In this document: positions 4,910-17,760 of the stretch, piece after piece
Position numbering within the stretch: the stretch's first letter is position 1
Layout: every line of letters begins with the position of its first letter
Assembly (NCBI GenBank): GCA_035221665.1
Contig: CM069154.1
Coordinates: 31,062,001 to 31,126,000 of the forward strand
Length of the DNA: 64,000 nucleotides
Direction: 5' to 3'
Source: Okamejei kenojei
Taxonomy: Eukaryota
Position numbers and translations under genes: made by a program
The notes under the pieces: model-generated
What the model saw: the letters and a program-made list of their open reading frames with translations, nothing else
The model's database searches: none
What the model was told of the DNA's origin: nothing

Positions 4910-5210
4910 TTAGACTTTAGAGATACAGCGTAGAAACAGGCCCTTCGGCCCACTGAGTCTGTGCCGACCAGTGATTACCCAGTATACTAGCAATATCCTA
5001 CCTACCAGGGACAATTTACAATTTTTCCGAAGGCAATTAACCTACAAACTTGTACGTCTTTGGAGTGTGGGTGGAAACCAGAGCAGCCGGCGAAAACCCA
5101 CGCGGTCACAGGGAAAACGTACAAACTACGTGTGGACAGCACACACGGTCAGGATCGAACCCGGGTCTCTGGTGCTGCAAGGAAGGAGCTCTATCGTTAC
5201 ACCACTGCAG
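4910..5210 (-). mobile_element. V-SINE (HE1-like)
   Basis: Reverse complement of the 43520 family. Confidence 0.9.
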
Positions 5211-9959: not shown

Positions 9960-10825
9960 CAAACCAGTCTACTCTCAAGCATCCCATGTGGTCACAGGGG
10001 GAACGCGTAAACTCCACGCAGACAGCACCCAATGTCAGGAATGAACCCGGGTCTCTGGCTCTGTGAGGCAGTGGCTCTACCAGCTGCATCACTGTAAGAA
10101 AATCCAGATATTGTGCATCTTGACAGGATGCCCTGTTGCACCTTCTGTCATGAACTAGAATCACCTGTGTGAGATCTTGTTTTATGGCCAGTATATTTCA
10201 GGGTGGCATGGTAGCACAGTGGCAGTGTAGCTGCCTTACAGAGCGAGAGATCTGGGTCCAATCATAATCATGGGTGCAGTCTGTATAGAGTTTGTACTTT
10301 CTCCCTGTGACTGTGCGGGTTTTCCCCAGGTCTTCTGGTTTCCTCCCACACTGCAAAGACGTACAGATTTGGTTAAATGGCTTTGGTAAAGATTGTAAAT
10401 TGCCCTTAGTGTGTAGAATATTGCTAGGGATCGCTTTTTGTTATAAAAAAAAACATTTTACTCTCTGGTTTGATATCCAAGAGAATCTTCAATGCTCCCA
10501 AATGCTTGATGAAATTACTGTTGCTATAATATTAGTTTAGAGATACAGTGCGGAAACAGGCCCTTCACCCCACGGAGTCCGTACTGACCTGCAATCCCCA
10601 TACATTAACACTATCTTACACACACTCACGACAATTTACATTTCTGCCAAGCCAATTAACCTACAAACCTGTACGTCTTTGGAGTATGGGAGGAAAGATC
10701 TCGGAGAAAACCCACGCAGCCACGGGGTTAAGGTCCAAAGTCCGTACAGATAGCACCCGTAGTCTGGATGGAACCCGGGTCTCTGATGCTGAAAGCGCTG
10801 TAAGGCAGTAACTATACCGCCTCGC
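9960..10825. mobile_element. Cluster of three V-SINE copies (- ~9960-10095, + ~10200-10435, - ~10535-10825)
   Basis: Family motifs present in alternating orientation. Confidence 0.85.
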
Positions 10826-12130
10826 CCTTAATATTAATATACAGTAATAATTGTAATAATATATACTTTCACCATCCCAGAGGTATTCTAACACTAAAGC
10901 ATGATTGTAATTAATGCTGGAAAACTGGAATTAACACCTGAGCGTGCAAGATCCATATGGGCAACTTTCAAGTTCAAAGGTAAGTGCTGTTAATTTGTCA
11001 ACGGTTAGAAAATCCTCGTCATCAATATCAAACATTCAGCACCAGCTTTTAAATAACAACATGCAGCAGATGTATTCCCTCTATTGTCTTCAGACAAACC
11101 AGAGACACCTACAGTCTTCATTACCAAATTTAAAAGATCTTAAGGTCTGGATTCTCATAAATAATTGGTAATAGGAAGAAGTGACTGTAGTTCTTCTGGT
11201 TGGGAATGATTTTATTTTCTTCAATCCAAGTAGGTTAGGAAATGAGGCCGATGAGTTGCAGGCTGAGGAAGGTTAAAGGACAGTTTTATTGCTATCATCG
11301 AAGCACAGTTAAAAGAACAGCCAGTTCTCGGGCAATATTAAGATAGAGATTACAAAAGTGAGTCGCAAATTGATTAAAACAAAAACAATTCATGACTGAA
11401 GGCAGATGTGTTAGAAAGCGGAATAAATTAATTAACTCGTTGAAATGAGGAATTTAAAAGGTCAAACTTCTGAGGTGCATCATAAACCTACCAGAACTTC
11501 GTAGTGAGTTAGAAGAATGCAAATTAGAAGAAATATGTAAGCAAATTACTGAGCTGCAGGAAGGGGGATGGAAAGAGGGCTAAATGGTGGCATAGGTGCA
11601 AGGTAATTGACAGAAATAATATTTTTTCCTTGAGGTGGGGTGGTGGGGGGGTTGAGAAAATATCATATCACAGTAAAAATGCGTGGAGTATGGTACTTAC
11701 TGGGGAGGATGGTAGTGGAGAAGGAAAAAAATTACATTTACAACATGCATGGACGAACTCTTGCTGTGCTGTAGCCTAAATGACTGCAGACGAAGGGTTA
11801 GCAACAGATGAGTTATCTTGGCTGGCACGTATATGGGACCTCATTCTGTTCTTTAAATTTCTTCGATTTAATGACAGGCTAGATCTGAGGTGGTCAGAAA
11901 AAGGGGATGGGAGGTAGAATTTCTTAAACCATGGTTAGAAAAATAGTTCAAAGTGTATGATTTGCAATAGATTGCACTGTAATTTTACTTCTTAACAGAT
12001 GGTTCTTTTCAATGCACATTTATACTAGAATTGCAAACGGCTCTGCAAATTGAAACAGTACAGGGATAGCATTCAAATGGAAACACCTGTTTTTATATAG
12101 AAAGGTTTGGCCCTGGGGGAAGGGGGAATT

Positions 12131-12256
12131 AAAGTCTGCAAGTTCAGTCTCAAGCTCCTCTGAAGACCCAGAGGCATTTTCAATTGGCTGGGTCATGGGC
12201 TTATTTTCAGCTACCAGCAACTAGTTTAATTGCATCAGAGCAAGCAGCAGCTTTAT
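12131..12256 (-). pseudogene. PPP1R12B: Degenerate homologue of the MYPT2 isoform-B alternative terminal exon, with in-frame TAG
   Basis: Translates IKLLLALMQLN*LLVAENKPMTQPIENASGSSEELETEL and aligns without gaps to recalled human [39 protein letters not shown]. It lies in the expected (last) intron. Confidence 0.65.
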
Positions 12257-12504
12257 CTGGAATGTTCCATTAAGAACAGCACATAGGGATGAAAATGGAG
12301 ATATAAAAACAAACAAAATTTGGACAGCAATTTATGAGAGGACTTTGCAAATATTACACTTCGAATTCATATTTCCCTGCATCTTAAAACATAATGCCAG
12401 GGCAAAGTATACTGTTACTGATGAGACCATTAACAATATTGATATACACACAGATCCAAGTCCACTGCTTCTTGAAAGTAATAAGACAAGTGTTTTGCGC
12501 AGAA

Positions 12505-14771: not shown

Positions 14772-15087
14772 ATTTAGTTCAGAGATACAGCATGGAAACA
14801 GGCCGTTTGGCCCACCGAGTCCGCACCGACCAGCGATCCCCACACATTAACACTATCCTGCACACACCAGGGACAATTTTATATTTATACCAAGTCAATT
14901 AGCCTACAAACCTGTACGTCTTTGGAGTGTGGAAGGAAACTGAAGATCTAGGAGAAAACCCATGTGGGTCACGGGGTGAACGTACAAGCTCTGTGCACAC
15001 AGCACCCGTAGTCTGGATTGATCCCGGGTCTCAGGCACTGTAAGATCTTTAAGGTAGCAACCCTACCGCTGCGTCACCGTGCTGCCC
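14772..15087 (-). mobile_element. V-SINE (HE1-like)
   Basis: Full head-to-tail family motifs. Confidence 0.9.
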
Positions 15088-16348: not shown

Positions 16349-17175
16349 CTGTAATGGATGCATTGTGCAATATTAGAATAAGGAATGTAGACAAGTATCT
16401 CAAGATACAAATATATCAAAAACATAAAAGGTGTGATTGGTTCTAACTGTCTCCCCTGTTGTGGAGGACCATAGACAGTCTCGAATCATCACACCCCTTA
16501 TTATAGCCAAATAGATTGGGGTAATCAATCCCTCTTGGTTCTTACTTTCTTCAAATCCATAATGTGGATGATATGTACTTTGCTGATCCTGAAGGAAACA
16601 AACTGGGAAGAGTTGCAGGGTAGCCTAGAGTTGTACCCCTGCATCCGTGCTCTGAACTATCACCACTTAAAACATCTGACAACGTTTCTAGGTTATACAA
16701 CACTCCCCTCTCTGTTTCGCTTACAACTGATCGATTGAGAGATATAGAATAGAAACACACCCTTCACCGTCATCAATTCTGGATGATGAGTCAGTACAAT
16801 TACTATAAACTAAAACTTCTGTATTGCTTATTTACTTTTAATAGTAAATTATGCAGTAAATTAGGGATATCTTTTTATTAATATACTCGTGTCAGTCTGT
16901 CCCGCTGAGTTACTCCAGCTTTTTGTGTCTATCTTCTGTTTAAACCAGCATCTGCAGTTCCTTCCTATACAAATCTCAATTTAATGCTCAGAACTCAAAG
17001 AACAACCAGTATTTTCACCTAATTTATGCTTAAAAGGTTTGCCATGGAACAGCTAAGTTGGTTGGCTCTTAATGTAATTATTTGAAGGGTGATGTAACAA
17101 TAGATGAATATATATTTTAATTTCATGTTCCTATTATTTGATAAGACATAAGGTGTACAGATGGACTTAACTTAC

Positions 17176-17226
17176 CCTTCTCTCCATCTCCAGCATCGAA
17201 GACTTATCAGAAATCCGTTCCTGTTT
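17176..17226 (-). CDS. PPP1R12B: MYPT2 exon, 51 nt: [17 protein letters not shown]
   Basis: gtgtttcag| ... |gtaagt. Matches KQEKTSDRSSVLEMEKR. Confidence 0.96.
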
Positions 17227-17324
17227 CTGAAACACACAAGTATGTACATTAGTCTGCACTGAATTGTCAATGCAACCTTCTCGGCCACAACATTTAATTT
17301 TAAGAACTGTGCAAGAAAAACTAC

Positions 17325-17429
17325 CTGAGTCGTTTTCTCCAGCTGGGCTTTCACGTCAGTAAGTTCAAGTTGTGCCACTTGCAGTTTGGCTTTAAGTTTA
17401 TCATTTTCTGTCAAGGCCTCTTCATACAA
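17325..17429 (-). CDS. PPP1R12B: MYPT2 coiled-coil exon, 105 nt: [35 protein letters not shown]
   Basis: Acceptor ttctgttttgaag| and donor |gtagtt. Matches LYESALTENQKLKTKLQEAQLELADIKSKLEK. Confidence 0.96.
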
Positions 17430-17553
17430 CTTCAAAACAGAAATAAGCACATGTGTACTATTTATAATTAAAAAAAAATAATAATCTCAACAATGCAATT
17501 AAATATTTGCAGTTACTAAAAGATAAAAAGTGCTTTCTTCAACTGGTACAAAT

Positions 17554-17760
17554 AACTTCAGGTAGCCCTTGCTCTCTCTCCCCCCCCCCACCTTCCCAGG
17601 CCTCCTACTAGTCCCACTGTCTCCGCCCACTTTCTTTCTTTGCCCTACCCACTCCCCCGACATCAGTCTGAAGAAGGGTCTCAACCCGAAACATCATCAA
17701 TTCCTTCTCTCCATAGATGCTGCCTCACCCGCTGAGTTTCTCCAGCATTTTGTGTCTACC
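17554..17760 (+). mobile_element. Penelope-like pseudo-LTR repeat with hammerhead-like core
   Basis: AAC TTC AGG TAG (NFR*, like a PLE ORF end), pyrimidine tract, CTGAAGA-stem-GAAA at 17668-17691, then the family tail gatgctgcctcacccgctgagtttctccagcattttgtgtct. Confidence 0.65.

Follow-up and report, generated by a model that had tools for sequence, protein, structure and literature searches.

A probable relic of a B-type tail exon within the final intron of skate MYPT2, with an intact counterpart in MYPT1

Mammals are known for the MYPT2 form of the B tail, whose exon lies in the last intron of PPP1R12B. The names HS-M21B and MYPT2B presumably belong to this tail, which is represented here by RefSeq and UniRef models. 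We take the heart-restricted mammalian isoform to be the product of the B-type exon; the human exon is reportedly an insertion of about 180 nt. The accessible portions of the literature describe heart-specific M20/M21 splice variants of MYPT2 and binding of the leucine zipper to cGK-I alpha (PMC5087845, PMC13755552, PMC9367544, PMC10944028, PMC4819859, PMC4552530), and the available text of one of these papers reports a mammalian isoform restricted to heart (PMC13755552). The LZ+/LZ- switch at E24 of MYPT1 resembles the B-type exon in that a cassette close to the 3' end takes the zipper away, but E24 is 31 or 13 nt long and one intron more upstream, acts by frameshift, and is non-homologous (PMC9367544, in the portion available). 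The accessible part of the same paper names human PPP1R12A variants, and the B-type exon is not among them, though primate MYPT1 models carry a B tail. In the literature searched, which covers subscription papers thinly, no paper on a B-type exon in cartilaginous fish was found.

The window analysed here, a stretch of 64,000 nucleotides from skate contig C24, contains the 3' part of a MYPT2 gene, and eight exons of this gene were mapped in it by tblastn; Table 1 gives the coordinates relevant here. Inside the last intron, we find a 180-nt segment that we read, with a probability of roughly 0.8, as a broken MYPT B-type tail exon that is likely neither spliced nor translated. The canonical zipper is then likely the sole ending of skate MYPT2, and MYPT1 keeps an intact copy of the B-type exon. 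The exon at 61526-61329 shares 98% identity with a PPP1R12B-like protein of Leucoraja erinacea. The motif TFSRSRAER, found in a window exon, is present in 4/4 tetrapod 12B proteins and 3/3 orthologues of the window gene and in 0/7 12A proteins. An unrooted tree of 16 proteins, built without 12C and without the paralogues on C18 and C37, sets all 12A proteins, including skate 12A, apart from tetrapod 12B and the orthologues of the window gene at 100/100. In the skate genome, C24 and C19 each carry a KDM5 paralogue, and KDM5 linkage in human presumably matches this placement of 12B and 12A. Orthology of the window gene to MYPT2 is well supported by these sequence comparisons, short of proof.

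Table 1. Coordinates of the skate MYPT2 locus and of the intact MYPT1 exon (window positions unless a contig is given)
Feature	Position	Strand	Basis or remark
PPP1R12B/MYPT2, 3' part	window, G000:C24:31062001-31126000	minus	
Penultimate coding exon of PPP1R12B/MYPT2	16348-16298	minus	ends in phase 0
Zipper exon (A tail, canonical leucine zipper, last exon)	4407-4321	minus	PF15898, E 1.3e-13
Probable decayed B-type alternative exon, body, 180 nt	12266-12087	minus	length equal to MYPT1 exon, ends aligned, protein homology
Old acceptor site, TGG in place of YAG	12267-12269	minus	AAC (Asn) start follows directly
Phase-0 CAG, candidate cryptic acceptor	12257-12259	minus	10 nt downstream of old start
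Frame homologous to B tail, 39 codons, prolines in helix	12140-12256	minus	
In-frame TAG at invariant Glu, codon 12 from the cag	12221-12223	minus	
Expected zone of the exon's own stop, none in frame now	12129-12136	minus	exact old position inferred
Donor-like site CAG/GTGTTT	12079-12089 (junction 12087/12086)	minus	aligned with CAG/GTGTTG of MYPT1 exon
Stretch across donor matching Heptranchias read-through tail	12051-12104	minus	tblastn, 12/18 residues
Intact B-type exon of skate MYPT1	C19:26359274-26359095 (coding 26359274-26359143)		gar-tail genome search, 75%, E 4e-12

A sequence-only reading had singled out this segment of the last intron as a B-type exon relic, and re-reading of the window reproduced its letters, its translation from 12256, the TAG, and its location between the penultimate and zipper exons. 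The relic shares gene, intron, and homologous frame with the MYPT2B/HS-M21B exon of mammals and axolotl, with 12-14/38 identities, and its end is acidic and ET/TQ-E-L-like, as in 12B tails, not of the QAVDL type of 12A. It differs in having no AG acceptor, a start out of frame, the TAG, no final stop, and prolines in the helix.

We collected 14 distinct B-type tails among the fetched proteins and built a profile HMM from 12 bony-vertebrate ones, leaving out one truncated tail and one with a long insert. Across the six frames of the window, this HMM picks out two places, 12259-12146 at E 1.4e-3 and, more strongly, the zipper exon at E 1.2e-4. The gapless alignment that had been proposed with the mammalian B tail holds for the MYPT2 tail of the rodent Octodon (14/38 identities): in an ungapped scan over a 38-residue register picked after the HMM match, the relic ranks 1 of 127,768 six-frame window positions, and 0/20,000 shuffles of the query reach its score. 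It again comes first of 127,768 with the gar (15/38) and axolotl (12/38) tails, and it ties with the zipper exon for first place with the skate MYPT1 tail (11/38). Other searches support it less strongly. The relic is absent from the top 6 tblastn matches of the Octodon tail to the window, has no match in a Pfam search, and stands 43rd of 149 matches (E 1.46) when the gar tail is searched genome-wide; its DNA likeness to the MYPT1 exon falls within background, with 2/500 shuffles and several of 289 unrelated windows scoring at least as high. The case for homology is built on the rank within the expected intron and on a shark homologue described below, and by these comparisons of protein sequence the homology to B-type tails is real.

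Four separate lesions distinguish the relic from a living exon: a GG acceptor, an out-of-frame start, the TAG at codon 12, and the loss of the final stop. In the intact skate MYPT1 exon and in the models of the sevengill shark Heptranchias perlo, the acceptor is immediately followed by Asn. The loss of the ancestral AG to GG, suggested earlier from the letters, is seen in the window and also in 4/4 other organisms. The frame that opens at the old start (AAC after 'aatgg') is unrelated to the B tail and stops at codon 20. Beyond ETEL, there is no stop, and the frame from the cag continues to a TAA at 12022. The relic thus lacks the features of a working exon, namely an AG acceptor before Asn, an open frame of ~44 codons with its own stop, and the helix residues; it retains 4/14 columns invariant among eight intact tails, and Heptranchias 9/14.

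The intact MYPT1 counterpart is flanked by the EEELK exon and the MLPDLK zipper exon. It opens after a pyrimidine-rich acceptor and comprises 44 codons and a stop, followed 45 nt on by CAG/GTGTTG, for a total of 180 nt; its match to PF15898 is weak (E 0.006). The relic also measures 180 nt from AAC to CAG/GTGTTT, and the donor-like sites of the two exons align. Because of this equal length and alignment, the relic is likely a 180-nt cassette by sequence, not a terminal exon, and the label of terminal exon given to it earlier is probably wrong, use of the donor being inferred. Inclusion of such a cassette, when alive, would replace the zipper tail by a related helix that carries its own stop. 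A stop less than 50-55 nt before the last junction escapes nonsense-mediated decay, so the MYPT1 stop, 45 nt before the donor-like site, would predict escape. B-type exons of MYPT1 are found in predicted models of skate, other batoids, gar, pike, frog, and some mammals; like the relic, they adjoin the zipper exon on its upstream side and run 180 nt to CAG/GTGTT, but unlike it they are intact and conserved (75% to gar, 84-100% among batoids). A search with the skate MYPT1 tail gave 32 matches: 12 batoid MYPT1 models at 84-100%, with frog, primate, and colugo MYPT1 making up the others; no shark MYPT1 with a B tail is among the 32 matches of this word-limited search. The MYPT1 B-type exon is itself worth study.

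A homologue of the relic in another chondrichthyan, anticipated by the sequence-only reading, exists in MYPT2 models of Heptranchias. Three predicted RefSeq models of a MYPT2-like protein, X1, X3, and X4 (XP_067863489.1, XP_067863491.1, XP_067863492.1), have an open 86-residue tail after EEELK. This tail matches the window in two collinear pieces, 12238-12146 (18/31 residues) and the stretch across the donor, with E 9e-8. It keeps AENRAL, is three residues shorter at the front, and lacks a stop where intact tails have theirs. The pattern Q-x-I-x-N-x-SGSS is common to the skate relic and Heptranchias, in place of RVV-x-K/R-LS in intact tails. The two exons are therefore alike in being orthologous, in having derived changes in common, and in having lost the stop, but differ in that the Heptranchias acceptor is used in the models and its frame is open. 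Overall, 18/35 residues are identical between the relic and Heptranchias, as against 57/66, 32/49, 30/35, 16/17, 17/17, and 27/28 (65-100%) in six constitutive exons. With the Heptranchias tail as the query, a word-limited search gave six candidates and no other cluster representative at E<=10. Since both share Q-x-I-x-N and lack the stop, the exon of elasmobranch MYPT2 would have been drifting before the split of skates and sevengill sharks, and onset of decay before the two lineages parted is likely on this sequence pattern. The skate line would then have lost the acceptor and frame and gained the TAG.

The exon itself appears far older. It had been proposed that it predates the split of cartilaginous and bony fish; the shark homologue bears this out, but the age was understated, given tails of this type in MYPT1, MYPT2, and arthropod MYPT. 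Among MYPT1 proteins, B-type tails were found in gar, pike, glassfish, frog, bat, spiny mouse, and primates, and among MYPT2 proteins in axolotl, rodents, and bat. Their presence in both paralogues implies that the exon would predate the MYPT1/MYPT2 duplication. A profile search returned 124 proteins at E<=0.001; the 10 that were looked up comprise eight arthropod MYPT isoforms in which a related tail follows EEELK, one piranha MYPT1, and one unnamed protein. The tails of arthropod MYPT/Mbs (Papilio, Bombyx, Folsomia, Oratosquilla, Artemia, Chrysoperla, and others) follow directly on EEELK as the B type does, but are open and coding, unlike the relic, and are known here from proteins alone. 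Descent of the B tail from a bilaterian ancestor is likely from these sequences, the alternative being separate duplications of the zipper exon. The HMM and PF15898 matches show the B tail to be related to the zipper exon, so 'zipper-minus' is a loose label.

We compared the relic with contigs from 4 of 6 other organisms over 12060-12330. The GG, the cag, the spacing, and the donor-like site show no listed difference in 4/4. The TAG is present in organisms D, E, and G (3/4), and organism B has AAG in its place, with the frame from the cag open through 12060 in the part examined. Codon 8 is AGG, encoding Arg as in intact tails, in organisms D and G. Because D and G keep this AGG, the TAG seems to be the older state and organism B to have changed again, as this one site suggests. 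In the 39 codons, the relatives and a second sample of organism A have five variable sites, four residue-changing and one silent; residue-altering changes make up 268/351 (76%) of those possible. The observed changes fit neutrality at the sequence level, in numbers too few for a test. Listed variable sites number 4 in 117 nt of the exon body versus 8 in 154 nt of the flanks, with a few differences near the ends of the compared stretch counted and not itemised, and there is no clear excess of conservation. A contig of the second sample of organism A covers the region; 12/13 of its differing letters are listed, none at the TAG or GG.

We took a census of MYPT2 in cartilaginous fish, comprising at least 77 records, all predicted models that are not independent of one another. 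The penultimate exon is present in 52 records and missing from 25. Those 52 continue to the A tail in 46 cases, to a B-like tail in three (all Heptranchias), and to another insert plus the A tail in two, and one record ends there. Among the at least 77 records, 0 batoid records use the relic. In the X1 models of MYPT2 from the stingrays Hypanus and Hemitrygon, an in-frame insert of 19 residues separates EEELK from the zipper exon. Derivation of this insert from the relic was rejected, as nothing in the window matches it (best E 1.5).

For expression, we inspected contigs of three presumed-RNA runs, X9, X20, and X24, of unrecorded tissue, two of which are flagged as probably DNA. Each has one long contig (4586-5219 nt, depth 35-54) that covers the last exon as far as 4405, beyond which its letters were not aligned to the adjoining intron. 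The depth of bin 17169-17600 is 13.1 in X9 and 15.8 in X24, compared with 13.12 and 15.86 calculated for a contig that includes the exons of 54 and 108 nt; the values for X20 disagree (39.6 versus 20.1). The X9 contig has 371 letters past 4405, too few to include the 170-nt relic as well, which needs 385. This suggests spliced mRNA that skips the relic; we do not count it as evidence, since repeat junctions crowd the junctions listed, with 1445 more beyond them, and contigs drop rare forms. Among the pieces listed for the three runs, none covers 12082-12263. Low-depth pieces at 11553-12081 (depth 3.5-4.6), below the relic, resemble other scattered pieces of the intron.

We favour a dead exon because of the homology, the four lesions, the GG and out-of-frame start in 4/4 relatives, and the TAG in 3/4, and also because of the loss of helix residues, the faster divergence than in constitutive exons, the batoid census, and the intact copy in MYPT1. 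Loss of the B isoform from skate MYPT2, as opposed to gain of a new short isoform, is likely. Several points count against this: the Heptranchias models splice onto the homologous exon, organism B is open at the TAG, skate and shark remain alike at the donor-like site and in its flank, which may mean constraint, and the mammalian isoform is restricted to heart (PMC13755552, in its accessible part). One can imagine, as a doubtful suggestion, that the exon was kept as a splicing switch after its coding function was lost. The acceptor 10 nt on and the old donor would form a poison exon, or else a read-through, zipper-less terminal exon, in heart or muscle, and MYPT1 would have taken over the B tail.

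In the version of this idea that invokes a poison cassette, the cag and the old donor would be used in some tissue, and the TAG would trigger decay and tune the level of MYPT2/M21 mRNA. The aligned donor-like site, unchanged among relatives, and the flank that matches the shark at the protein level agree with such a role, as do the cag conserved in 4/4 relatives and the TAG common to 3/4, which lies 134 nt before the donor-like site and therefore past the 50-55 nt limit if that donor is used. The pyrimidine content at the cag is ordinary by this crude measure of acceptors, with 5/10 pyrimidines at positions -4 to -13 compared with 6-9 at eight real acceptors of the gene in the window, and 222/364 YAG sites of the intron score at least as high. 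Over 20 nt, the cag scores 12, which is above two real acceptors (9 and 11) and equals one, and 106/364 YAG sites score as high. Organism B is without the TAG, and the exon body is not clearly more conserved than its flanks. We regard a poison cassette as unlikely.

The sequence-only reading had raised the prospect of a new zipper-less tail, made by splicing to the cag as a last exon and ending 11 residues past EEELK; such a protein would not bind PKG-I. The phase of the penultimate exon fits, there is one ATTAAA at 11872, the exon is terminal in the Heptranchias models, which continue past the donor, and zipper-less MYPT and M20 forms are described in the available text of two papers (PMC13755552, PMC9367544). 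The acceptor is nonetheless weak, the tail occurs in no batoid MYPT2 model, and codons 8, 9, and 12 hold 3/5 of the differences seen among relatives, which alter a residue or remove the stop. Were the donor used, the TAG would precede the last junction by 134 nt and would predict decay, not a zipper-less protein. The proposal found no positive support, and we judge it very unlikely. That the likeness is due to chance, or the TAG to an assembly error in a working exon, is scarcely credible and largely refuted: the genome-wide E of only 1.46, the lack of a Pfam match, and the background-level DNA likeness to the MYPT1 exon are outweighed by the first rank of 127,768 in the expected intron, the two collinear pieces at E 9e-8 to the Heptranchias tail, the equal length and aligned donor, and the TAG and GG in contigs of other organisms.

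Read as a broken exon, the skate MYPT2 relic completes a series of three stages within one clade, from the intact exon of batoid MYPT1, through the open exon without a stop in sevengill MYPT2 models, to the broken exon of skate MYPT2. An alternative exon would here have been sorted between duplicated genes, which suggests that the job of the B tail can be done from either paralogue. That MYPT1 keeps and MYPT2 loses the exon in skates is a neat, modest evolutionary result with no new mechanism.

The skate genome contains four MYPT-family paralogues, as against three in mammals (12A, 12B, and 12C). The zipper exons of the two further copies lie at C18:33573910-33574002 and C37:785170-785250, and a B-type exon was not seen in their short last introns. 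One of the four paralogues may be a retained fourth duplicate. Skate isoforms of 185 residues with the A tail have the size of the small M20/M21 subunit made from an internal start, and their internal start may lie inside the window. The last intron of the window gene carries copies of a high-copy interspersed repeat at 4912-5193, 10532-10820, and 14774-15069, with very high depth, which are likely SINEs. Just outside the window, past the 3' end of the gene on C24, there are reverse-transcriptase-like frames that, by their motifs, we take to belong to a LINE-type element.
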